64,000 bases of DNA from Anaerolineae bacterium (lineage in GTDB: Bacteria; Chloroflexota; Anaerolineae; Aggregatilineales; Ch27), in the NCBI GenBank assembly GCA_013178165.1, contig JABLXG010000003.1:39711-103710 (forward strand). The letters run 5' to 3'. This document shows positions 19,930-38,850 of the stretch, one piece after another. Each line of letters opens with the position of its first letter. The first letter of the stretch is position 1. A program made the position numbers and the translations under genes. Below the pieces are notes generated by a model. That model saw only the letters and a list, made by a program, of their open reading frames with translations, was not told the origin of the DNA and made no database searches.

Positions 19930-22617
19930 TCAGGCGTCGCTGTGTGCCAGGTGCTTTAGCAGAGCGAGCAGCAGCCAGCGCCCGGCCAGATGTGCCCGCA
20001 GGCCGACTGGCTGGTCGCCCAGCCCGCCCTGAAAGCGCAGGGTGGTCGCCGCCAGCCGTCCTGCGCCCAGCCGCATCTCCAGCAGGTAATCCGTCACATC
20101 AAACTGGCGGGCGTCCAGGCGGCGCAGCGGCGTGCGGACTTCTGCCGCGTCGGGCAGGACTTCGGCCAGGCGCGCTGTATCCAGCACCCAATCGGTCGCC
20201 AGACCGTAGAATTGCAGATCCAGCACGCCGTCGTGGGGCATAGCCGCCAGCGCCGGATGATCCCCGATCAGCGCGATCCCCTCGCGCCAGAAGGGGACGG
20301 CCCGCGCTGGCAGGGGACGGTCGCCCTGCTGGATCAGCAGGACGCGCCCACCACCCCGCGCAAAGCTCAGGACGTCGTCCGTCAGGACATCAGTGATCAG
20401 CACGCGCAGACCGGCGTCCGGCGTCTCTACACGCCGGGCAACCTCCAGCAGATCGTCCAGCCCGCCCAGAGCGCCATTCGGATCGAGCACGCCCAGTCCC
20501 GCCGGCCACGCGCTGACAACCGGGAAGATCCACAGTGGCCAGCTATTGCGTATCGCTGGCCGGCCTTCCGGCGTGAATGACGCCTGCAGGCGCAGCGTCG
20601 CAGCGCGCTCGGACGGCGGCGCGGCAAAAACCGCTCGCCCGATGCTACGGGGACGCCCGCCGGTCAGCGGGCCACTCACCGCCGCCTCCCCGCCACTGAT
20701 ATGCCTCCCTGCCGCGTCGACAACCTCCCAGACCAGCCGGCCGCCCGGCAACGGCGGCCCGGCATGGGCGAGGATGATCTCCAGTCCGGCGGACTGCCCG
20801 GCAGGGAAGCTGTACGGCTCGAAAGGCGCAGGGCGGTCGCCGCCATGCGTCCAGCGCCGCGCCCGTCCCCGCCCCAGCAGCAAAACGCTATCCGCATTGA
20901 ACTGGCGGAAGGCTTCCGGGTCATACTTGCTGCGGCCCAGATCATCGAACATCGAGGAGGAGGCCAACGGCGTGTCACGGATGCTGGTGACCACGTAGCC
21001 GCCCATGCCCGCTCGCGCCCGCACCTTCTCCAGGATCGTCTTGCGCACGACAAACGACTGCCGCCGCGACAGGCGCATCAGCGCCGCGTCGTCCAGCTCC
21101 AGATCAAGTCGTTTCATGCGTTCTTGCTGGGCCGGGTAGCCAACAAATGTCTTGGGATGTAGGGGATTCCATTCGGTGAACCACCAGGGCAATTCCCCGC
21201 CGAACGCCTGCGCGATCTCGCCCAGGTCGCGGTAGTCGTCGGCGTCGCAGAATTCGCCAAAGATCCAGGGGCGCGGGGGCCGCCAATCCCGGCTGAAGTG
21301 ATCAACCAGCGGCTCAAAGTAGTGCAGGTCGCAGTAGAAGTGATAGTCGTTGAAATCGGCAAAGTCAAAGGCCAGCCCACCGTAAGCCTCGCCGGAGCCG
21401 CTGTTGTCGCAGACGAGCACGCCCCCGGTGGCACCGCGCACAATCCCATCCAGCCGCCCCAGCAGTTCGGCGTCAACGCTATGCCCCAGTTCGCAACCCA
21501 GGCTGTACAGGATCACCGATGGATGGTGGTGCACTGCGTCGAGAATCTCAGCGTATTCGCGGGGGGCCTGCTCCCGTAGGCGGGGCGTCACTTCCGGCAG
21601 CCACATCGGCAGTTCCAGCCACAGGAACATGCCCAGTTCGTCCGCCAGGTCAAAATACAGGCGCGATGGGACGAACAGGCATAGCTTGATCAGGTTGTAG
21701 CCCAGGGCGCGGACGCGGGCGAACTCAGCGCGGATGGCCGCCTCTTCCGGAGCGGGGCACAGCACTTCCGGGTACCAGCCCCAGTTGAGCACCCCGCGCA
21801 GGCAGATCGGCTGCCCGTTGAAGAGCAGCTGCTCGCCCTGTCGTGTCAAGGCCCGGAAGCCAACGCGCCGTTCGGCAGCAGCGAGAGTCATCCCCTGCCC
21901 ATCCTCCAGCCGGAGGGCCACCGTGTAGCGCGCCGGATTTGCCGGTTCCCAGCGCACCGGATCCGGCACAACCACGCTGGCGCTCAGCCGCCCTTCCACC
22001 GGCGAACCAGACCACACCGCGACTACCCGCCCGTCAGGATGGGTGACCTGGACGCTGGCCCGCAGACCGGCCTCTATGTCCGCGCCTGTGACGGCGCCTG
22101 TGACCCGGATGCGCCCGCTCTCCACCTCGGCCAGCACCCGCAGGTCGCTCAGCGCCGGGCCGGGGAAAGCCACCAGCCGCGCCGATCCCCACACCCCACC
22201 GAACATCATGACGACATCCGGCAGGAAGCCGGCCAGCGATTCCCGCAGTGGAAAGCGCTCACCCTGCTTGTAGACGATCAGCCGGATCGTGTTGGCCGCG
22301 CCGAAGCGCAGCGCAGCGGTCACGTCAAGGGCAAACGGCGCCCACGAGCCGCTATGCCTCCCGACCGGGGTGCCGTTGATCGTCACCTCGATATCGTAAC
22401 TGACCGCCTCAAACTGAAGCTGCACCTGCCGCCCGGCCCACGCTGCTGGAACGACGATCTCCCGCTCGTAAATTGCCGGGCCATCAACCCGCCGGGGGTA
22501 GCCCTGCGCCTCCCAGCAGCCGGGTACCCGGATCGTGCCCTGTTGCCCGGCCAGGCTAAAGTGCCACTCGCCATCCAGCGGCAAGGTCTCGGCCAGCGTA
22601 TTATGCCACACGCTCAT
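19930..22617 (-). CDS. GH2-family glycosidase (beta-galactosidase/beta-mannosidase-like)
   Basis: 895 aa. A sugar-binding-domain pattern (FEAVSYDIEVTINGTPVGRHSGSWAPFALDVT) is followed by a TIM-barrel region. Confidence 0.75.
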   Translation of the reverse strand: MSVWHNTLAETLPLDGEWHFSLAGQQGTIRVPGCWEAQGYPRRVDGPAIYEREIVVPAAWAGRQVQLQFEAVSYDIEVTINGTPVGRHSGSWAPFALDVTAALRFGAANTIRLIVYKQGERFPLRESLAGFLPDVVMMFGGVWGSARLVAFPGPALSDLRVLAEVESGRIRVTGAVTGADIEAGLRASVQVTHPDGRVVAVWSGSPVEGRLSASVVVPDPVRWEPANPARYTVALRLEDGQGMTLAAAERRVGFRALTRQGEQLLFNGQPICLRGVLNWGWYPEVLCPAPEEAAIRAEFARVRALGYNLIKLCLFVPSRLYFDLADELGMFLWLELPMWLPEVTPRLREQAPREYAEILDAVHHHPSVILYSLGCELGHSVDAELLGRLDGIVRGATGGVLVCDNSGSGEAYGGLAFDFADFNDYHFYCDLHYFEPLVDHFSRDWRPPRPWIFGEFCDADDYRDLGEIAQAFGGELPWWFTEWNPLHPKTFVGYPAQQERMKRLDLELDDAALMRLSRRQSFVVRKTILEKVRARAGMGGYVVTSIRDTPLASSSMFDDLGRSKYDPEAFRQFNADSVLLLGRGRARRWTHGGDRPAPFEPYSFPAGQSAGLEIILAHAGPPLPGGRLVWEVVDAAGRHISGGEAAVSGPLTGGRPRSIGRAVFAAPPSERAATLRLQASFTPEGRPAIRNSWPLWIFPVVSAWPAGLGVLDPNGALGGLDDLLEVARRVETPDAGLRVLITDVLTDDVLSFARGGGRVLLIQQGDRPLPARAVPFWREGIALIGDHPALAAMPHDGVLDLQFYGLATDWVLDTARLAEVLPDAAEVRTPLRRLDARQFDVTDYLLEMRLGAGRLAATTLRFQGGLGDQPVGLRAHLAGRWLLLALLKHLAHSDA

Positions 22618-22665: not shown

Positions 22666-24261
22666 CTAGCTTCCCGCCGCGGCCTGGGCGATCACCGCTT
22701 CGATTTCCGGCTGCGCCGCTTCCAGCGTGCCGTCGACAAACGTCAGCGTCGGGATGTACGTCTCCGTCTGCGGCAGGCGGACGTACGGGCTGCAACCGGC
22801 TTCATGCACGCCGGTGCTGTTACGCGACGGATCGCCGTCGCAGATGTGGCCGATCAGCCGGGCGTAGCGCCCGACCCACTCCGGCACCTGCCGCCAGGTA
22901 GCCGTCTGCTGGAACACCGGCAGGATGGCCAGCAGACCGTCATACCAGTCTTCCCCGGCCACCAGCAGTTCCGGATGCCCGGCCCGCAGCCGGGCGATGA
23001 GCTGGCGCAGTCCCTCGCGCATATTAAAGTCCGGGTCGTTGACCCAGACCTCAGTGCAATCCAGAAAGACACCGTCAAAGCCAAAACGCTCAACCAGCGT
23101 CCGTATCTGGCGCGTCAATTCGGTCTGCCAGGCGGGCGCGCCAGGATGCAGCCAGGCCTGCCAGCCGGTGTCGTGTGTGCGTTTGAGGTCCCAGTCCGGC
23201 TGGTTGCCCCAGAAGGTGTTACGGGTGGCCGACTTCATGTAGGAAGATGGGCCGAAGGTATGGAAGTTCGGCGCCCAGGCATTGGCGCAGTTGACGCCGA
23301 ACATGGGCATGACATGCACGCCCAGCGCCCGCGCCCCTTCACACAGCCGGGCAAAACCATCCCCACCGCCCAGCAGCGGCTCCGGGCGGTAATCGCCATA
23401 CTGCCAGTAGTAGCGGCCCTCCCAGCCCGGCAGGTAAGCCAGCACATGGCGGCCATCGATCCGTTCGGCCACAAAGCGGATGATGTTCAGGGCCTGGGCG
23501 TAGGTGTTGAAGATGTAGCCTGACCAGTGCATCTGGTGAATCGTCAGGCACAGGCGGATGTCCCGCGCCCAGCGGGGAACATCCCCGCGCTTTTCCCAGG
23601 GTGCCAGCCCCAGTTCGGCTTCGTCAAAGGCCAGCTGCTCCTGCCGGAAGGCGGACACATCGACGTCCCGATCCAGCACCCACAGCGGCACATCGATCTG
23701 GGTGTCGAACCAGCGGGCATCTTCTTCATGCAGGCATTCGACGGTGTACGTGCCCGCCAGTGGCCCAAAGGTTTCGCGGCATACAGCGAACCGCTTGGCG
23801 CGGGCATGGGGATCTTCGTTGCGCGCGCCGATGATCGTCCCATCCGGCAGCAGGCCGAAGAACAGGGGCAGCCGCAACGGGTTGGGATAGGCGTCGATCA
23901 GCCCACCCTCAGGCAGATCGCGGGGGTGATCCAGCATATCCAGCGGGCGCAGAACAGGCAGGTTGCGGATCAGCACTTTGACCGCCCGGATCTTGTGCAG
24001 GGCGGTAGCCCGGATATTCAGCAAAAGCCGATCACCCTCCCCTCGCCTGGCGACCAGTTCCAGCGACCCCGGCGCGTGCTGCTGCTGCCCGGCCCAGCTC
24101 AGCCGGGAGCAAACCAGCCGCCAGCCGTCGTCGGTCGCCTCAAGGGTGGTGTGGGCCGGGTCCAGACCGTAGAGGTTTTCCAGGGTGATCACCTGAAAGG
24201 AAAGCTGCCAGCCTCCCAGTTCAAAAACTGGATCGCGAAGGTCAAAACTGTAGAGATGCAT
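22666..24261 (-). CDS. uncharacterised protein; possible novel TIM-barrel glycosidase
   Basis: 531-aa ORF with coherent amino-acid usage, located inside a glycosidase operon. The C-terminal half has barrel-like strand motifs (FDGVFLDCTEVW, LVAGEDWYDG). No family recognised by eye. Confidence 0.6.
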   Translation of the reverse strand: MHLYSFDLRDPVFELGGWQLSFQVITLENLYGLDPAHTTLEATDDGWRLVCSRLSWAGQQQHAPGSLELVARRGEGDRLLLNIRATALHKIRAVKVLIRNLPVLRPLDMLDHPRDLPEGGLIDAYPNPLRLPLFFGLLPDGTIIGARNEDPHARAKRFAVCRETFGPLAGTYTVECLHEEDARWFDTQIDVPLWVLDRDVDVSAFRQEQLAFDEAELGLAPWEKRGDVPRWARDIRLCLTIHQMHWSGYIFNTYAQALNIIRFVAERIDGRHVLAYLPGWEGRYYWQYGDYRPEPLLGGGDGFARLCEGARALGVHVMPMFGVNCANAWAPNFHTFGPSSYMKSATRNTFWGNQPDWDLKRTHDTGWQAWLHPGAPAWQTELTRQIRTLVERFGFDGVFLDCTEVWVNDPDFNMREGLRQLIARLRAGHPELLVAGEDWYDGLLAILPVFQQTATWRQVPEWVGRYARLIGHICDGDPSRNSTGVHEAGCSPYVRLPQTETYIPTLTFVDGTLEAAQPEIEAVIAQAAAGS

Positions 24262-24353
24262 GGTTTACGCGCCTTTAGGGGGCCGACCTGGCCAGCCCGG
24301 TCGGCAGGGCCGGGTAGCGCCTGGTGGTCAACCCGGCATGAATAGACAAACCC

Positions 24354-24366
24354 GGACAATTTGTCC
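24354..24366. promoter_or_regulatory. perfect 6-1-6 palindrome GGACAA-T-TTGTCC (candidate operator)
   Basis: Read directly. It lies about +11..+23 relative to the predicted minus-strand transcription start. Confidence 0.45.
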
Positions 24367-24383
24367 AGCCTCCTGGCCAATCC

Positions 24384-24411
24384 ACTATAACGCGAAGCAA
24401 GCGCCGGTCAA
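24384..24411 (-). promoter_or_regulatory. candidate internal promoter (TTGACC-16-TATAGT) for the 531-aa/GH2/GH35/URO-D/GH65 genes
   Basis: On the minus strand the -35 is the complement of 24406..24411 and the -10 is the complement of 24384..24389. Confidence 0.4.
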
Positions 24412-24492
24412 GACAGCGCTCCCCTTGATTACTGCCTGCAACGGATGGACAATCAGGCCGATCCAGACAACTTAGACTGCCCGGTATCCATT

Positions 24493-25179
24493 TTAGCCGC
24501 GGTAATACTTCTCGTAGTCGTTGACCAGCAGGTACAGCGGTGGCTCGTCTTCTTCAATCGCCGGGAAGCGACCGATCGGCTCGTAGAAGCGATTGTCAGT
24601 GGCGTCATCGTTGACGGAAGACACCTCGCCCACCAGCACGCGGTTACCTTCCGCCCAGAACTGGTGGTAGCAATACGGCTCCAGCGTGATACTCTCGCCC
24701 GGCTCAAGGGCCACCGTGCCGCCCGCTTTGACGGTGCGCGGTACAGCGTCGATCATCACTGTCACATCGTCGTCTCTCAGCGCCCCCTCAGGCGTGCTGT
24801 TATAGAGCTGGATCAGCAGTCTGCCGCCGCCGCGGTTGATGATGTCCTCCGTCTTGAGCCAGTGGAAGTGCAGCGGCGTGATTTGCTGCTCGCCGACAAT
24901 CAGCAACTTCTCCGCATACACCTTGCCCTTACCAGTCTTGAGATTCTCCGGGGAGCCGTTGCGGATAGTGAACAGGAACAACCCCTTGTGGGTGTAGTCG
25001 CCCAATCCAAAGTCAGTGATGTCCCAGCCCAACCGCCGGGCCACAATCTCGCGGGCTTCAGGCCCTTTGCGCCGCCAGTCATCTGGCGACCAGTAGGCGA
25101 ACGGCGGTAGATAAAAGCCATGCGCCTTGATGAAGGCGTCGGCTTCACGTATGATGGTGTTGATTTCAGACCGCTTCAT
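24493..25179 (-). CDS. D-lyxose / D-mannose ketol-isomerase (cupin)
   Basis: MKRSEINTII...LPPFAYWSP...YAEKLLIV...TPLHFHW.KTEDIINRGGG...VGEVSSVNDD..DN.F closely resembles characterised D-lyxose isomerases (E. coli O157 Z5688 type), from memory. ATG 25179 follows GGAGGAGAAG. Confidence 0.9.
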   Translation of the reverse strand: MKRSEINTIIREADAFIKAHGFYLPPFAYWSPDDWRRKGPEAREIVARRLGWDITDFGLGDYTHKGLFLFTIRNGSPENLKTGKGKVYAEKLLIVGEQQITPLHFHWLKTEDIINRGGGRLLIQLYNSTPEGALRDDDVTVMIDAVPRTVKAGGTVALEPGESITLEPYCYHQFWAEGNRVLVGEVSSVNDDATDNRFYEPIGRFPAIEEDEPPLYLLVNDYEKYYRG

Positions 25180-25240
25180 GCGTGCTTCTCCTCCTGTTGA
25201 GCGCGGGTACCGCCCGCTGCACCGATGATTGGAAAGCCTG

Positions 25241-26380
25241 ATGGCAGACAGCACAAACACTTTCTGGAAAGCGGACTGGGACCGCATCCGCGAGCATTAT
25301 ATGGCCTGGTGGCGGCGCGAGGGCCTGGTGCTGCATGTTCTGGCCCCCCGCGATTCCAGCCCGGAGCGCGATACGCGCAATCCCCAGGCCCCATTTTACT
25401 ACCTGATGGGCGGCCTGGACCCCACCGCCATCTACCCTGATGATGCCGCCCTGCGCGACGCCTGGCTCAACGCCGAACGCCGGGCGCGCCTGGCCGAGCG
25501 TTACCTGCGTGGCATCTACTTCGGCGGGGATGCCTTCCCCTTCTTCGATACCAACATCGGCCCGGGCAACCTGGCAACCTTCCTCGGCGCGGAGCCATCC
25601 TTCGCCCCGGACACCGTCTGGTACGCGCCGTGCATCACCGATCCTGACCGCCATCCCCCCCTGCGCTTCGACCCGCAGAACCCCTGGTTCCTGCGCCAGA
25701 AAGCTGTAGCGGAGGCCGGGGTCGCTATCAGCGCCGGGCGATTTCTGGTCAGCATGCCCGACCTGATCGAGAATCTGGACACCCTGGCCTCCCTGCGGGA
25801 GACGCAGCGCCTGATGCTGGATCTGGTCGAGCGCCCGGCGTTTGTCAAAGAGCGGCTGGCGGAGATCAACCAGGCCTACTTCCAGGCGTTCCAGGCGCTG
25901 TATGAGATCGTCCAGACGCCCTGGGGCGGCAACGTGTTCTCCGCCTTCAGCATCTGGGGGCCAGGACGCACGGCCAAAGTGCAATGTGACGCCTGTGTCA
26001 TGATCTCCCCGGAGATGTTCGCCGAGTTCGTCGTCCCCTACCTGGTCGAGCAATGCGCCTGGCTGGACTACAGCATGTACCATCTGGACGGCACGCAGGC
26101 TTTCCGCCACCTGGATGCGCTGCTGAGCATCGAGGCGCTGGACGCCATCGAATGGACGCCCCAGGTCAGCGCGCCGCAGGGCGGCTCCCCGGAATGGTAC
26201 GGCCTGTACCGGCGCATCCTGGACGCCGGCAAGAGCATCCAGGCGATCAACGTCCAGCCGGATGAAGTCCTGCCCCTGCTGGACGCCATTGGCACGCGCG
26301 GCGTCTTTCTGATGGTCAACGCCGCCAGCGAGGCCGAGGCCCGCGCCCTGGTTGAAGCGGTGGAGGCCCGCCGATCCTGA
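25241..26380 (+). CDS. URO-D-fold protein, paralogue 2 (divergent)
   Basis: PDLIENLDTLASLRETQRLMLDLVERPAFVKERL and QCDACVMISPEMFAEFVVPYL...YHLDG follow the URO-D family block order. ATG 25241 (GGAAAG SD) is preferred over TTG 25229. Confidence 0.6.
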   Translation: MADSTNTFWKADWDRIREHYMAWWRREGLVLHVLAPRDSSPERDTRNPQAPFYYLMGGLDPTAIYPDDAALRDAWLNAERRARLAERYLRGIYFGGDAFPFFDTNIGPGNLATFLGAEPSFAPDTVWYAPCITDPDRHPPLRFDPQNPWFLRQKAVAEAGVAISAGRFLVSMPDLIENLDTLASLRETQRLMLDLVERPAFVKERLAEINQAYFQAFQALYEIVQTPWGGNVFSAFSIWGPGRTAKVQCDACVMISPEMFAEFVVPYLVEQCAWLDYSMYHLDGTQAFRHLDALLSIEALDAIEWTPQVSAPQGGSPEWYGLYRRILDAGKSIQAINVQPDEVLPLLDAIGTRGVFLMVNAASEAEARALVEAVEARRS

Positions 26381-26403
26381 CGGAACCGGCGGGCAATCAC
26401 GAT

Positions 26404-27618
26404 CTAATACTCGCCCGTGGCCATTCGCTTCTGCATCTTGACCGGCGTGTTCTCTAGCAACCATGCTTCAGTGCGCGCTTTGATCGCCTCCGGCGTCTCG
26501 TTGTAGCCATAAGTTTGCAGCAGGACGGGCGTCCACTTTTGCCCCCAGCGGATGTGGAAATTCTCATCGCTCCAGTCGTAGCTGACGGCAGCGGCGGAGA
26601 CTTCGTCGGCGATCTTCTCCCAGTGTTCGCGGTTGGCCACCTTCTCCGGCATGCCATTCGGCTCGATCACAGTGGTCAGCAGCGCATACTGGTCGACCGC
26701 CGGCAGGGTCATCATGACGTTGTAAATCTGGACAACCTGCGGCACCTCCGAAACCTGCAGGCCAAGCTGCTGAACACGTAGCTGACCGAGCTGGCTGTGG
26801 CGCACCTCATCCCACTGGTGACGGGCCACGTTGTAGTGGAATTCCCAGGGCATTTCCGGCGTCATCCACAGCACGGAAGCCAGTGTCTCGGCGGCAGTCA
26901 TCTCATTAAGGTAGTGCTTGAAGCGCCACAGGCGGTGCGCTTCCGGCTCGGCCTGGCGGTCCGGCTCGATATCCGTATCGGGGTCGAAGATCGGCCAGCC
27001 GGGCATGCGCTGACATTCCTTCCAGGGCAGCAGCAGGGCATGCCCTGCCGGGCGAGCAGGCGGCTGCTGGCGCGGTTCCGCGCCGGTCACGCCGCCGTCA
27101 GCGGCCAGCAAACCGGCGATATACGCCTGCCACGCTTCCCAGCCGGGGTAACGCGCCGCGACTTCCGGGAAGAATGCCTCCGCCCAGGCGACCTGCTTCT
27201 CCGTCGTCTCGATCAACTTCTCGCGGATAATCTTGACCGTCGGATTGTCGAACGCTTCCCAGGTCAGGCCGGTATGGGCGCGGTAGGCGGCCAGCAATGC
27301 CTTCTTGATCACCAGGTAGGCGGTGGCGATCAGGTCGGCGGTATGCGCGGCGCAGTCCAGTTCGCGGGCCAGGGTATGCAACCCATCGCTGATGCCGCGC
27401 TCGAAGTTGTGGGCGCGTAACTCGCGCAGGCGAGCGTGCAATGCTTCGGCAGCGTCGGCGCTCTCCCAGATGTGCAGGCCGATCTGGTTCTTGGCTTCCC
27501 ATTCCGGCACGCCGGCCAGCCAGCCGGCCAGTGTCCGCGTCAGGCTGCGTTCCAGAAAGGCATAACGCTTCAACACCAGGACATTCTGCTCAATGGTCAG
27601 GCGGGATTGGGTCTCCAT
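26404..27618 (-). CDS. ferritin-like di-iron-carboxylate candidate, unknown function
   Basis: 404 aa from ATG 27618 (GGAGG SD). Two ExxH motifs (WDEVRH, SDENFH) and upstream Glu (NEMTAAE) lie in a helical C-terminal half. The N-terminal half is also helical. Confidence 0.6.
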   Translation of the reverse strand: METQSRLTIEQNVLVLKRYAFLERSLTRTLAGWLAGVPEWEAKNQIGLHIWESADAAEALHARLRELRAHNFERGISDGLHTLARELDCAAHTADLIATAYLVIKKALLAAYRAHTGLTWEAFDNPTVKIIREKLIETTEKQVAWAEAFFPEVAARYPGWEAWQAYIAGLLAADGGVTGAEPRQQPPARPAGHALLLPWKECQRMPGWPIFDPDTDIEPDRQAEPEAHRLWRFKHYLNEMTAAETLASVLWMTPEMPWEFHYNVARHQWDEVRHSQLGQLRVQQLGLQVSEVPQVVQIYNVMMTLPAVDQYALLTTVIEPNGMPEKVANREHWEKIADEVSAAAVSYDWSDENFHIRWGQKWTPVLLQTYGYNETPEAIKARTEAWLLENTPVKMQKRMATGEY

Positions 27619-27655
27619 GAACAATTTCCTCCAATAACCTTCAATCTTCACCATG

Positions 27656-27665
27656 TGTATAGACA
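27656..27665. promoter_or_regulatory. operator candidate TGTATAGACA
   Basis: One mismatch from the palindrome TGTCTAGACA. It overlaps the -35 of the predicted plus-strand promoter and lies in the leader of the minus-strand gene. Confidence 0.5.
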
Positions 27666-27688
27666 AACTAGCGGGATGTGATTATACT
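27660..27688 (+). promoter_or_regulatory. candidate promoter TAGACA-17-TATACT for the URO-D3/GH38/ABC operon
   Basis: Both hexamers match consensus 5/6, with a 17-nt spacer. Eye-predicted. Confidence 0.4.
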
Positions 27689-27689
27689 G

Positions 27690-27718
27690 ATTGTAGCTTA
27701 TGCGGCTTGCCGGATCAA
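27690..27718 (-). promoter_or_regulatory. candidate promoter TTGATC-17-TACAAT for the ferritin-like gene
   Basis: On the minus strand the -35 is the complement of 27713..27718 and the -10 is the complement of 27690..27695. A perfect TATAAT also exists as the complement of 27681..27686. Confidence 0.35.
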
Positions 27719-27805
27719 TCACGCCTTTCACCCGCTCTTCCGGCCTCCATAACGGCCTGGGAATCCGCGTTAACGCGCCAGGCGCGCCGCCCCCCATCGC
27801 CGCCA

Positions 27806-27815
27806 TGTCTAGACA
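27806..27815. promoter_or_regulatory. operator candidate, perfect palindrome TGTCTAGACA
   Basis: Read directly. It ends 43 nt upstream of the URO-D3 start codon, inside the predicted leader. Confidence 0.5.
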
Positions 27816-27857
27816 ATCCGGCAGCCGCCTGTTGACCGCACCACCCTGGAGTGACTG

Positions 27858-29012
27858 ATGGCCGAAGTGATTGAGATTGGCGTGTCGGTGGAAGAGCTGG
27901 CTGCCCGCAAAGAGCGGGTCACCAAAACCAAGCGTTTTGAGGAGCCGGATCGTGTGCCGGTCATCCCAGCCATCGCCCACCGCTTCATGATTCCCAAAGT
28001 GGGCGTCCGCTTCCGTGACTATTACCGCGACCCCGAAACCATGCTGCGCACCCAGATTCTGGGCCAGAAGTGGTTGATGGAAAATGTGCGCACCGACGCC
28101 TACAGCATCACCGGGGCGTGGGTCGGTGCCTGGACGGATTTCCAGAACACCTTCGAGGCCGGTAGCCTGGGCTGCGAGATCATCTTCCCCGACGACGACA
28201 TCCCCTGGGTCGGGCCGGGCTGGGTCAAGACGGAAGAAGACCTGGCCCGCCTGGAAGCGATGGACTTCATTCACAGCGGCATCAACGCCCGCCAGATCGC
28301 CTACCGCCGGGCGATGATGGCCGTCGCCGAGCGTTACCCCGTCCGCTTCCTCGGCGGGGAGGTGTTCTACCCCGGCGCCAACCCTGCCCTGACCCACACA
28401 TCTGATGGGCCGTTTGGCATAGCCGGCGATCTGATGGGCCAGACCGAGTTGTTCACCGCCTGTTATGAGCGCCCTGATTTTGTACGCGAACTGCTGCGCA
28501 TCATCACCGACAAATTGATCGAATACCTGGACTTCTGCTGGGAAGAAGAACAGCTCCCGACCCGCGACTTTGCCTGGACGGATGACCTGGCGGTTAACCT
28601 CTCCGCGGAGATGTACCGCGACCTGGTCCTGCCGGAGGAAAAGCGGCTGCGCTTCCACTTTGACGGCTGGCTTTCCCTGCACATGTGTGGCAAGACCGAC
28701 CACCTGCTGGAGATCTTCCGCGACGATCTGGCGATCCATGAGTTGCAGGGCTTCGGCTACCAGGTCAACCTGGATCGCATTGCCGAAGTGATGGGCGGGC
28801 GTGTCGTCCTGATCGGCAACATCGACCCGATGCTGATCCACAGCGGCACGCCGGAACAGGTTCGGAAAGCAACCCGTATCGCCATTGAGAAGCTGGCCCC
28901 CTACCGGGGCTATATCGTCCAGGATGGCAACAACATCCCGCCCGGTTCGCCGCTGGAAAACATCAACGCCATGACCGAAGCCGCCGAACTTTACGGGCGC
29001 TATCACGATTAA
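27858..29012 (+). CDS. URO-D-fold protein, paralogue 3
   Basis: EELAARKERVTKTKRFEEPDRVPVIP N-terminus and the LHMCG...IGNIDP pattern are typical of the URO-D superfamily. GGAG SD. Confidence 0.75.
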   Translation: MAEVIEIGVSVEELAARKERVTKTKRFEEPDRVPVIPAIAHRFMIPKVGVRFRDYYRDPETMLRTQILGQKWLMENVRTDAYSITGAWVGAWTDFQNTFEAGSLGCEIIFPDDDIPWVGPGWVKTEEDLARLEAMDFIHSGINARQIAYRRAMMAVAERYPVRFLGGEVFYPGANPALTHTSDGPFGIAGDLMGQTELFTACYERPDFVRELLRIITDKLIEYLDFCWEEEQLPTRDFAWTDDLAVNLSAEMYRDLVLPEEKRLRFHFDGWLSLHMCGKTDHLLEIFRDDLAIHELQGFGYQVNLDRIAEVMGGRVVLIGNIDPMLIHSGTPEQVRKATRIAIEKLAPYRGYIVQDGNNIPPGSPLENINAMTEAAELYGRYHD

Positions 29013-29062
29013 GGCTTATTGCGCGTTTACCGGCCGGAGAGCCGCCGCCCCCAGGAGCAAGC

Positions 29063-31846
29063 ATGCCCATGAGCAGCACGCGTCGCACGGCAACCATTGT
29101 GCCTCACACGCACTGGGATCGCGCCTGGTACGTCACCTTCCAGGAATTCCGCGCCCGCCTTGTCCGCCTGATCGACCGGCTGATTGACCTGCTGGAGCAG
29201 AACCCGGACTACCGCTTCTTTATGCTGGATGGCCAGACTTCCATCCTGGAAGACTACCTGGAAGTGCGCCCGCAGCGCGCCGATATCCTGCAGCGCCTGG
29301 CGCGGGAGGGACGGATCAGTGTGGGGCCGTGGTACGTGCTCCCGGACGAATACCTGGTCAGTCCGGAGGCACTCATCCGCAACCTGATGATCGGTCACCG
29401 TATGGGCGCGACTTATGGCGGGGTGATGAAGGTCGGTTATGTCCCGGATGGTTTCGGGCACATCGCCCAGCTGCCCCAGGTCTTCCGCGGCTTTGGCATC
29501 GATTCGGCGATCTTCTGGCGTGGCGTCGGCGCGGAAGCCGACCACATCGGCGCCGAATTTGAGTGGGTTGCCCGGGATGGCTCCCGTGTGCTGGGCATCT
29601 GGATGCCCTGGGGCTACCACAACCTGTCCAATGTCGGTTATCCCATCCGCTGGGGCGATACCTCGCAGATGGCCTTCGACTGGGAGATGGCTCTCCAGCA
29701 GGTCGGGCAGGCGCTGGAGAAGCTGGAAGGGCTGTGCCACACCCCCGCCCGCCTGCTGATGAACGGCATCGATCACGCCGAAGCCGAGCCGCGCATCCCG
29801 GAACTGGTCGCCCGCGCCCGCGCCGCCTTCCCAGATGTTGACTTCCGCATGGGCACGCTGAGCGACTATCTGCGCGATGTTCGCGATTCCGGCGTCCCGC
29901 TGCCCGAATTCAGCGGCGAATTCCGCTGGGGGCGCTACGCCGAAATCCTGCAGGGCGTCTATTCCACCCGCATCACCCTCAAGCAACGCAACCACCGCGT
30001 GGAAACGCTGCTGGAGCGTTACGCCGAGCCGCTCACCGCCTTCGCCCGCCTGGCTGGGGCCAACCCACCCGCTGGCACTCAGGATCTACTGTGGACGGCC
30101 TGGCGCTGGCTGCTCAAGAATCACCCCCACGATGACATCTACGGCAGCGGGATCGACCAGGTACACGACGAAATGCTCTACCGCTTTGACCAGGCCGAGC
30201 AGATCGGGAATATCCTGGTGCGGGACAGTCTGCGCCTGCTGGCCCGCCACGCCGATTTCTCTGCCCAGACGGGCACGCCGGTGCTGGTCTACAATCCGCT
30301 CAACTGGACACGGACGGAAGTCGCCGAGGGAACGATCGACTTCGACTTTGACGACCCGACAGCGGAGCGCTTCACCCTGTACGATGCTCAGGGCCAGCCG
30401 ATCCCCTGCCAGGTCCTCAGCCGCGAGGATGCCGTCTGGCTGGAAACGCTCAAGCCCAACCGCAAGCGGCGGGTGCATGTCGCCTTCCGGGTGGAAGCGC
30501 CGCCCTGCGGCTATACCACCGTCTACGCCCGTCCCGGCGGCCAGACGACTCCCCTGCCCGGCACCCTCTGGCGCGTCGATCCTGATGGCGCGGAGAATGC
30601 TTACCTGGCTTTCCGCATCGCTGCCGATGGCAGCCTGACCATCCGCGACCGGGCTACCGGGATGGTTTACGCCGGTCTGCACCGCTTCTATGATGTGGAC
30701 GATGCCGGGGATGAGTACAGCTATTGCCCGTGCCCCAACAGCGAGGTCTACAGCTCCGCCGGGCAACCCGCCCGGATCGAGCTGGTGCTGGACAGCCCTC
30801 TGCTGGCCCGCTTCCGCGTCACCCAGACGCTGCGCCTCCCCGCCGCGCTGAGCGCCGATCGGCAACGCCGCTCGGAGACGCTGGTTGACCTGCCGATTGT
30901 CTCCCTGTTGACCTTCTACCGCGACCAGCCAGGCCTGTACATTGAGACGCGCGTCACCAACACCGCCCGCGACCACAAACTGACGGTCACCTTCCCCACA
31001 CCGCTGCGCCCAGAACACGCTTATGTCGATGCCGCCTTCCAGGTCAGCGCCCGCGAGATCGCCCTACCGCCTTCCGAAGGCTGGCTGGAAGACCCCACCC
31101 CGCTTATGCATCAGCGGGCTTTCACCGACCTGAGCGACAGCGGGCGCGGGCTGGCTGTGCTCAACCGCGGCTTGCCTTCGGTGGAAGTCGAGCGTACCGC
31201 CGAAGGGACGCAGATCGCGCTGACCCTGCTGCGGGCTGTTGGCTGGCTTTCCCGCGACGATCTCAGCACCCGGCGCGTCGCTGCCGGGCCGCTACTGCCA
31301 ACGCCCGGCGCACAGTGCCCCGGCAACCATATCTTTGAGTACGCCATCCTACCCCACAGCGGCGACTGGACGGCTGTAGCCCGTCTTGCCGCCGCTTACA
31401 CAGCTCCCCTGCACATCGCCCGCGCCGACACGCATGAGGGCATGGAACTCAAGGAGATGCCCTTCATTGGCGTGGACCTGGACTGGTATAACCAGGTGGT
31501 CAAGCCGATCCCCTGGCCGCGCGACGGCCAGAACCCGGATACGCTCAGTTTCCTGGCCCTGGAACCCGCGCCGCTGATTGTGAGCGCGATCCGGGCCAGC
31601 GCCGACGGCGAGGGGCTGGTCGTGCGCTTCTACCACCCCGGCGACTCCCCGCTAACCGCCCGGCTGATCAGCCAGCGCCCGCTGGCAACCGTTTACCGCC
31701 TGAACCTCAACGAGGAGCGCCAGGCCAAAGTCATTCCGGCGGAGGGGCCGGATGCCTGGCAGCTAACCGATAACAGCCATACTGTGCTGATCCCGGTGGT
31801 GGGCGGCCAGATCGTCACGTGCGAACTGCGCCCTGCCCGGGGTTAG
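29063..31846 (+). CDS. GH38 alpha-mannosidase (mannosylglycerate-hydrolase-like)
   Basis: IVPHTHWDRAWY, FMLDGQT and VGPWYVLPDE are GH38 N-domain signatures. 927 aa. Confidence 0.9.
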   Translation: MPMSSTRRTATIVPHTHWDRAWYVTFQEFRARLVRLIDRLIDLLEQNPDYRFFMLDGQTSILEDYLEVRPQRADILQRLAREGRISVGPWYVLPDEYLVSPEALIRNLMIGHRMGATYGGVMKVGYVPDGFGHIAQLPQVFRGFGIDSAIFWRGVGAEADHIGAEFEWVARDGSRVLGIWMPWGYHNLSNVGYPIRWGDTSQMAFDWEMALQQVGQALEKLEGLCHTPARLLMNGIDHAEAEPRIPELVARARAAFPDVDFRMGTLSDYLRDVRDSGVPLPEFSGEFRWGRYAEILQGVYSTRITLKQRNHRVETLLERYAEPLTAFARLAGANPPAGTQDLLWTAWRWLLKNHPHDDIYGSGIDQVHDEMLYRFDQAEQIGNILVRDSLRLLARHADFSAQTGTPVLVYNPLNWTRTEVAEGTIDFDFDDPTAERFTLYDAQGQPIPCQVLSREDAVWLETLKPNRKRRVHVAFRVEAPPCGYTTVYARPGGQTTPLPGTLWRVDPDGAENAYLAFRIAADGSLTIRDRATGMVYAGLHRFYDVDDAGDEYSYCPCPNSEVYSSAGQPARIELVLDSPLLARFRVTQTLRLPAALSADRQRRSETLVDLPIVSLLTFYRDQPGLYIETRVTNTARDHKLTVTFPTPLRPEHAYVDAAFQVSAREIALPPSEGWLEDPTPLMHQRAFTDLSDSGRGLAVLNRGLPSVEVERTAEGTQIALTLLRAVGWLSRDDLSTRRVAAGPLLPTPGAQCPGNHIFEYAILPHSGDWTAVARLAAAYTAPLHIARADTHEGMELKEMPFIGVDLDWYNQVVKPIPWPRDGQNPDTLSFLALEPAPLIVSAIRASADGEGLVVRFYHPGDSPLTARLISQRPLATVYRLNLNEERQAKVIPAEGPDAWQLTDNSHTVLIPVVGGQIVTCELRPARG

Positions 31847-31871
31847 CCTGTGAGTAAGGAGGTGCACGCCT

Positions 31872-31881
31872 GTCAATTGAC
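31872..31881. promoter_or_regulatory. perfect 10-bp palindrome GTCAATTGAC upstream of the binding-protein gene
   Basis: Read directly. It ends 56 nt upstream of ATG 31937, within the GH38-SBP intergenic gap. Confidence 0.3.
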
Positions 31882-31936
31882 CTGAGCTTCGCCCGGAATG
31901 AACGCTTTTTGCCCGTATAAAAGGAGGAGCTTCAAG

Positions 31937-33199
31937 ATGTCTGTCAAAGTTTCTCGTCGTGAATTTCTTAAGACCAGCGGTCTGGCCGCTGCCGCCGTCG
32001 CCACCTCCAAGTTCCCCATGCCGGGGATCATCCATCGTCGCCAGATGAACACCGTCGTGCTGAAGATTCAGTCCTTTGCCCATGACGCGATCAAGGCCGT
32101 GCTGCCCGACTTTGAGGCGGCCACCGGCCTGACCGTGCAGCTGGAGCCAGGGCTTTCCTCCGGCCCGGAGCACATGCAGGAAGTCAGCACCGCCTACGCC
32201 GCCGGCGATAGCCCCTGGGACGTCGTCAGCGACCCGGATGAGGGCACCGTTGCCTTCGCCCGCGCGGGCTGGTTGATGCCGCTCGATGACATCATCCCGC
32301 AGGAAACTCTGGACGACTTCCCCCAGGGCATGCGGGACGCCTTCCCCATCTGGCATGGCTTTGAAGGTGCGCTGTACCGCGTGCCACACGAGTTTGCCGT
32401 GGGGTATTTCTTCTATCGCAAGGACCTGCTCGGCGAGCCGCCCAAGACCTGGGAAGAAGTGGCCGAGATCGGTATGCAGGTCACCGATGCCGCCAATGGC
32501 GTCTGGGCCACCACCGACGCGATCATCCGCGGCGGCCTGACCTGGGTCTATGTGGCCTACCTGGCCAGCCAGACGGGCGGGAACGTCTTTGAGATGGATG
32601 CTGGCACGGCGCACGCGGCGCACTTCCTGTATGACATGCTCAATGTCTACAAGATCATGCCGCCCGACGCGCTCAACATGAACTACGACCAGCAGAACCA
32701 GCTCTACATGAGCGACAAGGTCATGTTCATGCGCCAGTGGCCGTTCTTCCAGAGCGTGGCCGAGGGCAACACCGAATGGTTCAGCCCGGACAAGGTCGCC
32801 ATCGCCCTGCCGCCCGCTGGCCCCGCCGGGACGGGCAGCTGGTGGGGTGGCTGGGGCTTCAGCGTCCCGGCCCTGGCCCCTAACCCCGATGGCGCCAAGG
32901 AGCTGATCAAGTACATCACCTCCAATGAGGTCGCCCCCAAGCTGGCCCAGGGCCAGAGCTGGTTCATCATGCCGCGTACTTCCATCCTCAACGCGATGGC
33001 CGGCACCGGCAATCCGATCGTGGACGCCATGGGCCTCTACGCCGAGAACAATGTGATCAAGCCACGGCCGTTCCACCCACGCGCTGCTGAGGCGCAGTAC
33101 GCCGTTGACGACGCGATGCTGCAGTACCTGACCAAGCAGGCCACCCTGCAGGAAGCGCTCGCCTTCGGCAAGCAGCTGCTGGCCGACCTGAGCGCCTAG
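31937..33199 (+). CDS. CUT1-family sugar ABC transporter substrate-binding protein with Tat-type signal
   Basis: MSVKVSRREFLKTSGLAAAAVA twin-arginine signal. Family-1 solute-binding pattern. AAGGAGGAG SD before ATG 31937. Confidence 0.88.
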   Translation: MSVKVSRREFLKTSGLAAAAVATSKFPMPGIIHRRQMNTVVLKIQSFAHDAIKAVLPDFEAATGLTVQLEPGLSSGPEHMQEVSTAYAAGDSPWDVVSDPDEGTVAFARAGWLMPLDDIIPQETLDDFPQGMRDAFPIWHGFEGALYRVPHEFAVGYFFYRKDLLGEPPKTWEEVAEIGMQVTDAANGVWATTDAIIRGGLTWVYVAYLASQTGGNVFEMDAGTAHAAHFLYDMLNVYKIMPPDALNMNYDQQNQLYMSDKVMFMRQWPFFQSVAEGNTEWFSPDKVAIALPPAGPAGTGSWWGGWGFSVPALAPNPDGAKELIKYITSNEVAPKLAQGQSWFIMPRTSILNAMAGTGNPIVDAMGLYAENNVIKPRPFHPRAAEAQYAVDDAMLQYLTKQATLQEALAFGKQLLADLSA

Positions 33200-33226
33200 G
33201 GTAGGTTCCATCGTCTGTTGACCGTT

Positions 33227-33259
33227 CCCCCCTCCCGGTTCAGTCCGCCGGGAGGGGGG
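33227..33259 (+). terminator. intercistronic 12-bp GC stem-loop after the SBP gene (attenuator or mRNA stabiliser)
   Basis: CCCCCCTCCCGG (33227..33238) pairs with CCGGGAGGGGGG (33248..33259) around a 9-nt loop. No T-run follows. Confidence 0.5.
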
Positions 33260-33298
33260 AGGCTTGCACTATCTTGTCCAGGCTGGAAGGAGGTTGGC

Positions 33299-34225
33299 GT
33301 GGTCGCCAACGCAGAAAACTCGCGGGCTGTTACGCGCGTCAAGACATCGCGGCTGAGCCTTAACCAGCGGCGCTACGTGGCAGCCGCACTGTTGCTGGCG
33401 CCGGTGATCCTCCTGCGCCTGTTTACCACCCTCTACCCGTTCGTCCAGACCATCTTCCTGAGCTTTGAGAAGTACAATCCGGCCTTTCCACCGCGCCAGT
33501 ATGTCGGACTGGGCAACTTCGAGAAGATCGCTTCGGATATCGTGGTGCGGAGCAGCGTCGAATTCACGCTGATCTTTGTCTTTGGCTCAACCCTGTTCCA
33601 GCTGATCTTCGGGATCATGGTTGCCTCGCTGCTCAACAGCCGCTTCCGGCTGCGCAATCTGGCCCGCACGATCAACCTGATCCCCTGGGCCATCCCGATG
33701 GTGGTGGCGGCAGTGGGCTGGCGCTGGCTGTTCGACGGCACTTACGGCTGGATCACCGACCTGCTGCACCGGCTGGGAATCGACTACAGCTGGCTGATCG
33801 ATCCGGTTGGCGCGCGCATCGCCATCCTGATTGTCAGCGTATGGAAGAGCACACCCTTCGTGGCCATCTCCATCCTGGCCGGGCTACAGGGCGTGTCGGA
33901 GGAACTCTATGAGGCCGCCCGTGTGGACGGGGCCAACGCCTGGCAATCGTTCTGGAGCATCACTCTGCCCCTGATCATGCCGCTGACGGTCACCATCGGC
34001 ATGTTCATGCTGGTCTGGCAGCTGGCCGTTTTTGACCTGCCCTACGCCATGACCTCCGGCGGGCCGGGCTTTGCCACCAGCGTGCTGGCCTACCAGATCC
34101 AGCAGCAGGTCGCCACACTGAATTACGGCTATGCTTCAGCACTCAGCGTGGTCATGTTCCTCATCGTAGGACTTATCGGCATCATCGGCGTGGTCGCGTT
34201 CCGGCGCGTCCAGGTCGCGCTGTAA
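33299..34225 (+). CDS. sugar ABC transporter permease (MalF/UgpA-like)
   Basis: Multiple TM helices and an EAA loop ([22 protein letters not shown]). I chose GTG 33299 after GGAAGGAGG. The upstream part of the ORF (33218..) contains the hairpin. Confidence 0.85.
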   Translation: MVANAENSRAVTRVKTSRLSLNQRRYVAAALLLAPVILLRLFTTLYPFVQTIFLSFEKYNPAFPPRQYVGLGNFEKIASDIVVRSSVEFTLIFVFGSTLFQLIFGIMVASLLNSRFRLRNLARTINLIPWAIPMVVAAVGWRWLFDGTYGWITDLLHRLGIDYSWLIDPVGARIAILIVSVWKSTPFVAISILAGLQGVSEELYEAARVDGANAWQSFWSITLPLIMPLTVTIGMFMLVWQLAVFDLPYAMTSGGPGFATSVLAYQIQQQVATLNYGYASALSVVMFLIVGLIGIIGVVAFRRVQVAL

Positions 34226-34237
34226 AGGGGAAATAGC

Positions 34238-35086
34238 ATGGTTGGCCAGTTTTTGCGGCGTCACGGCGGGCGCATTGTCACCTACATCGGCTTCCTGATC
34301 TTCGCCTTCATCATGCTGTTCCCGTTCTACTTCATCGTGGTATCGTCCTTCACGCCACGCTACGAGATTTTCCAGACACCGCCGCGCTACTTCCCACAGA
34401 ACCTGACGCTGGAAAATTACCCGAACATGATCGCGACGATCCCATTCTGGCAGTACTACGCCAACTCCCTGATCTTTGCGATAGGCAGCTCGCTGCTCTC
34501 CACGGTGGTCAGCGCGATGGCGGGGTATGGATTGGCCCGGCTAAAGTTCCCCGGCAGTAATCTGGTCTTCCTGGGGCTGGTGCTGTCCATTGCCCTGCCA
34601 CAGGTCGCCCTGCTGGTACCCATCCGCGAAATGTACAACGTGCTGGGGCTGAACAATACCCATCTGGGGTTGATCATCCTGATGTCCAGCCTGGTCACGC
34701 CGTTCACGGTGTGGATCATGGTCTCCTTCGTCAACCAGATTCCGGTCGAGATCGAGGAAGCGGCCCTGATCGACGGGGCAACGCTGTGGCAGACGATCAT
34801 CCGCATTGTCCTGCCGACCATGCGCCCGGCACTGGCCACGATGCTGATCATCAATTTCATCAATGCCTGGAACGAGCTACTCTACCCGATGATCTTCGCC
34901 ACGCGCAACGACACCAAGACGCTCAGCGTTGGCCTGATCTCGCTGGGGCGCGAGGCCATCGGCACCTCCCGCCCCTGGGACCGGATGAGCGCGATGAGCG
35001 TGTTGATGATCATCCCGGTGGTGATCCTGATCATCTTCGGGCAGCGGGCCATCGTCTCCGGCCTGACGCGCGGCGCAGTCAAATAG
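34238..35086 (+). CDS. sugar ABC transporter permease (MalG/UgpE-like)
   Basis: EAA loop IEEAALIDGATLWQTIIRIVLP. 282 aa with 6 predicted TM segments. Confidence 0.88.
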   Translation: MVGQFLRRHGGRIVTYIGFLIFAFIMLFPFYFIVVSSFTPRYEIFQTPPRYFPQNLTLENYPNMIATIPFWQYYANSLIFAIGSSLLSTVVSAMAGYGLARLKFPGSNLVFLGLVLSIALPQVALLVPIREMYNVLGLNNTHLGLIILMSSLVTPFTVWIMVSFVNQIPVEIEEAALIDGATLWQTIIRIVLPTMRPALATMLIINFINAWNELLYPMIFATRNDTKTLSVGLISLGREAIGTSRPWDRMSAMSVLMIIPVVILIIFGQRAIVSGLTRGAVK

Positions 35087-35107
35087 CGCCTCTGCCCCCG
35101 ATCAGCG

Positions 35108-35142
35108 AGCGACCGGCCATAGATGGGATGTGGCCGGTCGCT
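35108..35142. terminator. 12-bp stem-loop between convergent permease and GH31 genes
   Basis: AGCGACCGGCCA (35108..35119) pairs with TGGCCGGTCGCT (35131..35142). T-poor flanks. Confidence 0.4.
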
Positions 35143-35183
35143 GCGTTCTGGCGGGAATCAGGTCAGGGCGCGGAGACCCATCA

Positions 35184-37592: not shown

Positions 37593-37619
37593 CCCTCCTC
37601 AGCAGAGAACAAACGCCAG

Positions 37620-38720: not shown

Positions 38721-38769
38721 ATGCGGCTCGTCCTGTAACCGTCAAAGATGTTCGAGGGCAACCTCGACA

Positions 38770-38779
38770 TGTCTATACA
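38770..38779. promoter_or_regulatory. operator candidate TGTCTATACA at the regulator's predicted transcription start
   Basis: One mismatch from TGTCTAGACA. The extended ATACAAAT matches 7/8 of the B. subtilis AraR-box half-site GTACAAAT (from memory). Confidence 0.5.
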
Positions 38780-38785
38780 AATTCC

Positions 38786-38814
38786 ATTTTCCGCCGGTTT
38801 GCAGCCCCTGTCAA
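38786..38814 (-). promoter_or_regulatory. candidate promoter of the AraR-type regulator (TTGACA-17-GAAAAT)
   Basis: Perfect -35 (complement of 38809..38814), 17-nt spacer, -10 (complement of 38786..38791). Confidence 0.45.
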
Positions 38815-38834: not shown

Positions 38835-38850
38835 ACGGTGCCTTCCGGGG

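Follow-up and report, generated by a model that had tools for sequence, protein, structure and literature searches.

A conserved palindromic box as the putative operator of a GntR/LacI-hybrid regulator at an α-mannosidase and sugar-import locus of an Aggregatilineales bacterium

One of the questions raised by a 64-kb stretch of DNA from an Anaerolineae bacterium (Chloroflexota, Aggregatilineales) is how the gene of a 366 amino acid regulator, a GntR-type DNA-binding domain fused to a LacI-like sensor, may be tied to a divergent promoter region (a divergon) that separates a DUF455-like gene from an operon starting with a URO-D-fold gene. The whole stretch, called the window here, covers C23:39711–103710 of assembly G000 (4,185,105 bp in 52 contigs, 62.8% G+C), and coordinates given without a contig are positions in it. 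A first-pass annotation of the sequence had proposed that a recurring palindrome, TGTMTAKACA in IUPAC code, is the operator that links the two. We looked at this box in the source genome and in its relatives, and we suggest that the boxes are the operator of the adjacent GntR/LacI-hybrid regulator, which we propose to be a repressor, with a probability of roughly 85%. Binding, the direction of control and the effector are what we infer from sequence. The proposed link draws its support from the uniqueness of the box, the domain architecture of the regulator, the conservation of site, position and promoter layout, the co-inheritance of regulator and target, and the co-variation of protein and site. 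Direct reading and a pattern search both returned the three ten-letter boxes at 27656–27665, 27806–27815 and 38770–38779, all of them in divergent regulatory regions as the annotation held. The ten letters are the core of a palindrome of about 16 bp with the consensus AWTGTMTAKACAWT, and the sites are listed here at that length:

27653 to 27668: O1, 16 bp ATGTGTATAGACAAAC, with core TGTATAGACA at 27656–27665, in the divergon of the DUF455-like and URO-D-like genes
27803 to 27818: O2, 16 bp CCATGTCTAGACAATC, with the perfect palindrome TGTCTAGACA at 27806–27815, 48 bp before the URO-D-like ATG
38767 to 38782: O3, 16 bp ACATGTCTATACAAAT, with core TGTCTATACA at 38770–38779, putative autoregulatory site of the regulator gene

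In the 64-kb window, TGTMTAKACA has three matches against 0.01 expected from dinucleotide-preserving shuffles, and none of 100 shuffles reached three. A search for TGTCTAGACA with up to one mismatch also gives three matches, where 0.64 are expected and 4 of 100 shuffles yield at least as many. The earlier estimate of about 0.1 hits in 4.4 kb of non-coding DNA was of the right order. The whole genome of 4,185,105 bp holds exactly three matches, which are O1, O2 and O3, where our own arithmetic from mononucleotide composition predicts about four. A similar density of the box inside coding DNA had been named as a reason to abandon the claim, and zero exact copies were found elsewhere in the genome, coding DNA included. 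The 57 one-mismatch variants include 12 that are intergenic by a crude gene call. The placement of the three sites is more telling: they all lie inside one 11.1-kb stretch, for which three points placed at random in 4.19 Mb have a probability of about 2e-5, they border a single regulator gene and a single divergon, and all are intergenic, although a crude open reading frame (ORF) call makes about 91% of the genome coding. That call takes the longest ORF start and in this way wrongly labels O1 as coding. For the DUF455-like gene an ATG at 27618, giving 404 amino acids, is favoured over the start of the 420 amino acid ORF, because its orthologues have 401–423 amino acids and most of them 401–412. 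The O1 centre is located 42 bp upstream of this ATG, and the O3 centre 54 bp upstream of the regulator ATG.

Is this placement kept in other genomes? Our related-genome set comprised 40 genomes, 14 of which have an orthologue of the regulator (57–95% identity), and a second set comprised 40 named loci from a species-representative collection, 25 of them at 57% identity or more (at least 57%), with 14 of these being genomes of the first set. TGTMTAKACA stands just upstream of the orthologous regulator in 13 of the 14 relatives, a TGTNTANACA box is found within 450 bp upstream in 22 of the 25 named loci, and in most loci the box centre is 50–64 bp before the regulator start codon. Boxes also precede the same target genes in genomes from three families. 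Five genomes (G001, G003, G004, G005 and G009) have a box that separates the DUF455-like gene from the URO-D-like/GH38/ABC operon, and G006 has one between the DUF455-like gene and an operon whose first gene is GH38 (glycoside hydrolase family 38). In G023, G029, G035 and G040 a box is located between the GH38 and ABC genes; G023 has another before its URO-D-like gene, and G040 another before its DUF455-like gene. The distance to the DUF455-like gene is 32–68 bp (G001, G004, G040) and the distance to the URO-D-like start 42–48 bp (G001, G005, G009, G023). Two further groups of sugar genes carry the box in relatives: perfect copies stand upstream of the orthologues of a 531 amino acid glycosidase-like protein in G003, G005, G009, G023 and G040, and in G005 and G009 one lies where the genes of an 825 amino acid MGH1-like glycosidase and of a second ABC system diverge.

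A genome-wide scan with a position weight matrix (PWM) had been suggested by the first-pass annotation. Our matrix was trained on 58 non-redundant sites from other genomes only (consensus AAAWTGTMTAKACAWTTT), and all three boxes are among its top matches in the source genome, with O3 ranked first, O1 second and O2 fifth. O1–O3 fit GTMTAKAC or GTNTANAC, as do 58 of the 58 training sites by construction. Five other matches were set aside for lack of any sugar context: two are inside coding sequence (C7:78311 and C47:7759), one is in a stretch of low third-position G+C beside a transposase-like gene (C49:82911), and two precede the gene of a protein whose sequence looks fasciclin-like to us (C1:281150 and C1:281236). 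Between the source genome and its congener G001, all 112 positions of the operators (with three flanking bases on each side) and of the promoter hexamers agree, compared with 468 of 569 in the remainder of the three intergenic regions. O1 is identical in G001 with varying flanks, O2 is identical below 60 bp of variable upstream sequence, and a degenerate fourth candidate, O4, is identical as well. The regulator and the URO-D-like gene are also inherited together. An orthologue of the latter is found in the source genome and in each of the 14 relatives that have the regulator, with a frameshift in G031, and none was found in the other 26 related genomes searched. Twelve of the 14 have it on the same contig as the regulator; the assemblies of the other two (G004 and G005) are fragmented.

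Another question regards the kind of protein that would read such a box:

37620 to 38720, minus strand: regulator gene, 366 amino acids, GntR winged helix-turn-helix and LacI/PBP1-type sensor (Pfam, NCBIfam, PDB)

The fusion of a GntR DNA-binding domain to a LacI-like sugar-binding domain, as first read from the translation, is confirmed by Pfam. Residues 12–75 match GntR (PF00392, 1.5e-22, 79.4 bits against a cut-off of 27) and residues 90–360 match Peripla_BP_3/Peripla_BP_1 (PF13377, 131 bits, 5e-38; PF00532, 106 bits, 4e-30). No UTRA domain is among the seven Pfam families listed at E ≤ 0.001. At the same threshold no LacI-type helix-turn-helix family is found at the N-terminus, where GntR and other winged-helix models match, and the LacI-type models of NCBIfam align only from residue 85 onward. 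In the PDB the DNA-binding domain comes closest to NagR/YvoA (51.5 bits, 9e-13); the PdhR DNA-binding domain is also matched, that of AraR (4egy) is sixth with 38.8 bits and 9e-9, and DasR scores under AraR. The sensor matches a LacI-type protein at 1e-41, also RbsR, CcpA and PurR, and the AraR C-terminal domain (3tb6) at 1.4e-28. The AraR subfamily of GntR regulators is defined by architecture, an N-terminal GntR winged helix-turn-helix and a C-terminal GalR/LacI-type domain (PMC4494728). Our protein has both, and its consensus AAAWTGTMTAKACAWTTT is a palindrome of the GntR type (GT-Nx-AC with A/T-rich flanks). By architecture it is a member of the AraR subfamily, but not an orthologue of AraR itself: its boxes have the centre M-TA-K in place of the ACGT of the AraR consensus ATTTGTACGTACAAAT, and arabinose genes are absent behind them. 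The box does follow the operator consensus of the HutC subfamily, NyGTMTAKACNy with the core GTMTAKAC (PMC4494728), while the UTRA effector domain of that subfamily is replaced by a C-terminus of the PBP1/LacI type. The N-terminal helix-turn-helix that marks the LacI family is missing.

The resemblance to the Bacillus subtilis ara box that had been pointed out earlier stands only in part. The TGT-N4-ACA frame and the A/T-rich flanks agree, whereas the centre follows the HutC consensus GTMTAKAC. B. subtilis AraR is a repressor with eight palindromic boxes (ORA1/2, ORE1/2, ORX1/2, ORR3 and ORB1; consensus ATTTGTACGTACAAAT); at catabolic promoters it binds cooperatively to a pair of boxes, and araR itself has a single one (PMC1950556). 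Our system resembles it in the chimeric build of the regulator, the palindrome of about 16 bp, the distribution of two boxes plus one, and the predicted repressor geometry. It differs in the centre of the box (CTAG, ATAG, CTAT or ATAT, in place of the ACGT of TGTACGTACA), in domains that match NagR (DNA-binding) and LacI, RbsR and CcpA (sensor) better than those of AraR, and in a regulon of GH38, URO-D-like, DUF455-like and ABC genes with no arabinose genes. The published AraR-type regulons of Firmicutes and Thermotogae are arabinose regulons (PMC8579813, PMC3750489). With the HutC-type regulators NagR/YvoA of B. subtilis and DasR of Streptomyces it has in common the operator core, and NagR/YvoA is its best match in the DNA-binding domain, yet those proteins carry a UTRA fold where ours has a LacI/PBP1-type sensor. 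Sites of the dre type have G/C at the flanking positions (GGT...ACC), whereas the core here is flanked by T/A (TGT...ACA). RbsR, CcpA, PurR and LacI itself are closest in the sensor domain and, as our regulator is predicted to do, exert local control of a sugar locus with autoregulation, but the DNA-binding domain and the operator here are of the GntR type, with no LacI-type helix-turn-helix.

If the box is read by this regulator, residues that touch the DNA may be expected to follow the box, and paralogous GntR/LacI hybrids with 33–41% identity allow such a comparison. Their genes are preceded by the palindrome TGTCCGGACA or by TGTWCGGACA in the same TGT-N4-ACA frame, and one of them is found in the source genome (C49:187592–188695). 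In an alignment of 15 sequences the recognition helix ARGT.R..L and the wing GRGT are invariant. The two groups compare as follows:

Orthologues of the regulator: helix (V/I)ARGTxRQAL, wing GRGT, operator centre M-TA-K
Paralogues: helix ISRxTxxxAW, wing xKGT, operator centre CCGG or WCGG

One locus with the helix ISRSTVRQAY and the wing GKGT has TGTACGTACA, the classical ara-box core. As helix and wing residues co-vary with the operator centre, we argue that each hybrid regulator would read its own box. For the paralogue with 37% identity (L027–L030, and C49:187592–188695 of the source genome), a conserved palindrome ACTTGTCCGGACAAGA is found in four loci of three genomes, 18–42 bp ahead of the start codon, and is a predicted second operator class in the same TGT-N4-ACA frame.

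How might the regulator act at these sites? The promoters considered here are matches to a σ70-type consensus:

27660 to 27688, plus strand: predicted promoter of the URO-D-like/GH38/ABC operon, TAGACA-17-TATACT, 10/12 consensus positions, with the -35 within O1
27690 to 27718, minus strand: predicted promoter of the DUF455-like gene, TTGATC-17-TACAAT, 9/12 consensus positions, placing O1 at about +18 to +27
38786 to 38814, minus strand: predicted promoter of the regulator gene, TTGACA-17-GAAAAT, with O3 beginning 6 nt past the -10, at about +1 to +10
24384 to 24411, minus strand: predicted promoter of an operon of the 531 amino acid protein gene and a GH2 gene, TTGACC-16-TATAGT, placing O4 at about +26 to +41

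Both hexamers of the first, second and fourth of these are unchanged in G001. The consensus scan agrees with the first-pass annotation that O1 overlaps the -35 TAGACA of a rightward promoter and lies in the leader of the DUF455-like gene, and that O3 sits at the predicted start of the regulator gene, a layout kept in more than 15 genomes. When more than 15 orthologous loci are aligned on the box, TTGACA-17-(G/T)A(C/T)AAT is followed by 3–6 nt and then by the box, and this conserved promoter and spacing put the operator at about +1. In regulons of this type, a transcription factor binding site that falls within a 5' untranslated region or covers a promoter element points to a repressor (PMC8579813). 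The steps that we propose are all read from position. A regulator dimer would bind the palindrome when no sugar effector is present, and transcription would be blocked. At O3, about +1, this would lead to autorepression of the regulator gene and probably also of the GH31 gene downstream of it. O1 could act on both sides, for it holds the rightward -35 and sits about 20 nt into the predicted leftward DUF455-like transcript, so that one dimer could shut both units. O2, 150 bp from O1, would be a second block before the URO-D-like gene, and the degenerate O4 may weakly control the operon of the 531 amino acid protein and GH2. Three roles can be considered for O2: it might act as a roadblock within a leader about 160 nt long, pair with O1 in a DNA loop, or serve as operator to a promoter that the scan did not recognise; its description as a site in the operon leader depends on the predicted promoter at O1.

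Several observations weigh against the proposed repressor and its boxes. A reversed, non-complemented control pattern also occurs three times genome-wide; as this equals the count of the box, the genome-wide count was dropped as evidence, and it is where the sites lie and how well they are kept that carries the argument. The relatives compared here do not count as independent samples, and three orthologous loci (L065, L066 and L069) have no box upstream of the regulator. Distant homologues with 48–53% full-length identity keep the recognition helix, with a box upstream in only 1 of 15; these either are not autoregulated or have operators beyond the 2.5-kb flanks examined. The promoters are predictions from consensus matches, and directly upstream of O2 a σ70-like promoter was seen neither in the source genome nor in G001. 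Could the boxes then be chance A/T-rich palindromes in intergenic DNA? The control count and the 57 one-mismatch variants, 12 of them intergenic, would allow it, but the clustering, the placement and the conservation in more than 20 genomes contradict it, and we regard chance as practically negligible. A different binder would fit the core of the box, as GTMTAKAC is the HutC-subfamily consensus and typical of HutC-type proteins (PMC4494728), and the source genome encodes 10 GntR-domain proteins: a HutC-type regulator at 48133–48957 in the window, or one of eight further GntR-domain proteins, might occupy the sites. The phyletic pattern makes the HutC-type neighbour an unlikely candidate. Its orthologues (at least 58% identity) were not found in six genomes with the box cluster (G003, G004, G005, G006, G009 and G019) and are present in G002 and G010, both without the cluster, and the box is always directly on the promoter of the hybrid regulator gene despite differing gene order. 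Another GntR protein as the binder is therefore improbable.

The proposed regulator could also be right in identity and different in action. An activator or dual regulator would be compatible with O3, which lies about 75–85 bp upstream of the likely start of a divergent kdgK-like gene (TATAAT at 38851–38856). This is hard to reconcile with boxes that, in many genomes, cover the predicted -35 or lie at about +1, with characterised relatives (AraR, NagR and LacI-type sensors) that are repressors (PMC1950556, PMC8579813), and with a kdgK-like gene that adjoins the regulator only in genus g1; we consider activation highly improbable. A much closer question is whether the same repressor uses O2 at a second, unrecognised promoter, with O1 serving the DUF455-like gene and O2 the URO-D-like operon, and O2 being neither roadblock nor looping partner. 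The distance from O2 to the ATG is kept at 42–48 bp in five genomes, that from the box to the DUF455-like start at 32–68 bp, and a clear TTGAC(G/C)-17-CA(T/C)AAT promoter stands 4–5 nt before the URO-D-proximal box in G003, G004, G005 and G009. Paired boxes are 24, 32, 93, 98, 140, 144, 150, 151, 168, 184, 205, 221 or 231 bp apart with no common helical phase; in-phase looping as in AraR finds no support in a spacing that is not conserved, although it may still apply in the source genome, and a conserved distance to the ATG beside a variable pair spacing (24–231 bp) favours each box serving its nearest gene. On the other side, the sequence upstream of O2 is GC-rich in the source genome and G001 with no match to a -10 or -35, and the 10/12 promoter at O1 (TAGACA-17-TATACT) is kept in G001. 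We consider a separate promoter at O2 a real possibility, though less likely than not.

The next question is what the repressor, as proposed here, would control. The genes around the boxes were mapped from Pfam, NCBIfam and codon-position G+C:

19930 to 22617, minus strand: GH2 glycosidase (Pfam), candidate regulon member via O4
22666 to 24261, minus strand: 531 amino acid GHL10/DUF6259-like protein (Pfam), candidate regulon member via O4
24336 to 24351, minus strand: O4, candidate degenerate site GTTTGTCTATTCATGC with one core mismatch, in the leader of the GHL10/DUF6259-like gene
24493 to 25180, minus strand: D-lyxose/mannose isomerase
25241 to 26380, plus strand: protein with no Pfam match at E ≤ 0.01, codon-position G+C of coding type
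26404 to 27618, minus strand: DUF455-like (ferritin-like) protein, 404 amino acids, single-gene unit (PF04305, 35.2 bits)
27858 to 29012, plus strand: URO-D-fold protein, 384 amino acids, first gene of the rightward operon (PF01208, 5.5e-35)
29063 to 31846, plus strand: GH38 α-mannosidase, 927 amino acids (Pfam)
31898 to 33199, 33218 to 34225 and 34238 to 35086, plus strand: ABC sugar importer, solute-binding protein and two permeases (SBP_bac_1 and BPD_transp_1, Pfam)
35184 to 37592, minus strand: GH31 glycosidase, α-xylosidase-like (Pfam, NCBIfam)
38918 to 39949, plus strand: PfkB sugar kinase, KDG-kinase-like (kdgK-like)
39985 to 41001, plus strand: Zn-dependent dehydrogenase

The closest structures to the GH38 protein are the GH38 α-mannosidases of Enterococcus faecalis and Streptococcus pyogenes; the NCBIfam mannosylglycerate-hydrolase model gives 487 bits, under that model's cut-off. 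A gap of 27 nt separates the GH31 gene from the regulator gene, from which we take the two to be probably co-transcribed, and a GH31 gene is near the regulator also in G023, G029 and G040. Taken together, GH38, the ABC oligosaccharide importer, GH2, the 531 amino acid glycosidase-like protein, the MGH1-like protein of the relatives and the nearby lyxose/mannose isomerase suggest the use of α-mannosides. These genes point to a regulon of the mannoside type, not of arabinose, for uptake and breakdown of an α-mannoside, and our guess for the likeliest inducer would be mannose or a mannoside-derived sugar. Boxes and regulator are linked most tightly to the URO-D-fold protein, which is only distantly akin to true HemE and MtaA, and to the DUF455-like protein, for which no relative in the PDB was found by sequence. 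One speculative option, which we think unlikely, is that the co-inherited core of URO-D-fold, DUF455/ferritin-like, GH38 and ABC proteins forms an undescribed catabolic route for a modified (e.g., O-substituted) α-mannoside, in which the two non-glycosidases would do the unusual chemistry and the regulator would sense the substrate or a product. A literature search for URO-D, DUF455 and glycoside hydrolase in combination gave nothing relevant.

The mechanism itself is ordinary for bacteria; it is a switch of a known type in the little-studied Anaerolineae. For the Aggregatilineales, about whose regulation almost nothing has been known so far, the operator consensus, the promoter layout and the candidate specificity residues give a regulatory code that can be tested in uncultured members. 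The AraR-type build appears to serve sugar loci other than arabinose there, with several paralogues per genome, whose boxes keep the TGT-N4-ACA frame and vary in its four central bases. As a marker the box can be used too: it ties the URO-D-fold and DUF455-like proteins to an α-mannosidase/transporter module, which narrows the search for their role.

O4 is the fifth-best match of the first PWM and scores below 10 with the second, for which reason it is counted as a candidate only. A box of G003, CGGTGTATAGACAAAC, has its right half in common with it. Adjoining O4 at 24352–24368 is a near-perfect palindrome, CCGGACAATTTGTCCAG (GGACAA-T-TTGTCC), which is unchanged in G001 and which a terminator scan reports as a hairpin with GTTTGTCTAT behind it; a second regulator might bind there, or the leader of the 531 amino acid protein gene might form an RNA hairpin at this point. 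An Rfam scan of 24000–39200 at E ≤ 1 gave only two sub-threshold matches to snoRNA models, inside genes. The gene at 25241–26380 starts 60 bp from the divergent lyxose isomerase start (25180) and converges on the DUF455-like gene with a gap of 23 bp, and its counterparts in G003 and G040 align with the URO-D-like protein at 25–26%. A minus-strand ORF of 432 amino acids at 25166–26464 was discarded, as codon-position G+C puts the gene on the plus strand at 25241–26380. Near the kdgK-like gene, an everted repeat ATAGAC-N8-GTCTAC was considered; it is probably not functional, because this stretch differs between the source genome and G001.

The source genome has an MGH1-like/ABC divergon orthologous to that of the relatives (C21:6848–7295; 73% and 82% identity) with decayed boxes only. 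One of these, AATTGTATAGATCAAT, has one extra base in its right arm and is located directly past a TTGACC-17-TATAGT promoter, and another, GATTGTACAAACATC, is found 53 bp beyond it; control may have been lost or weakened here in this genus. In the distant homologues (L072–L077, L079–L085, L088 and L089) it is the helix ARGT.RQAL and the wing GRGT that are kept. Of the 22 regulator leaders, 9 (L054, L055, L057, L061, L067, L070 and L086, also L059 and L071), where shuffles predict 0.8, have an additional forward half-site RGACAW, often ATAGACAA, located 20–22 bp past the right half of the operator or, in two loci, 32 bp past it; the source genome has none. Many of the promoters that bear it have a half-site-like -10 hexamer, GACAAT, and the half-site could be an auxiliary contact or the remnant of a box duplication. 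Upstream of rpoB in G017 (L032:7405–7614, contig C10), a box TATTGTCTAGACAAAC lies about 25 nt past TTGACA-17-TATAAT with no sugar context and may be a chance or unrelated site; the presence of two identical boxes 155 bp apart at this place was rejected as an assembly artefact, a 55-nt duplication around a run of N. Finally, a box with C/G flanks, CTGTCTAGACAG, is located beside the start of a 1305 amino acid gene in two loci (L048:6289 in G040, contig C60, and L050:6634 in G029, contig C9); it may be read by another regulator of the GntR type or mark a further member of the regulon.

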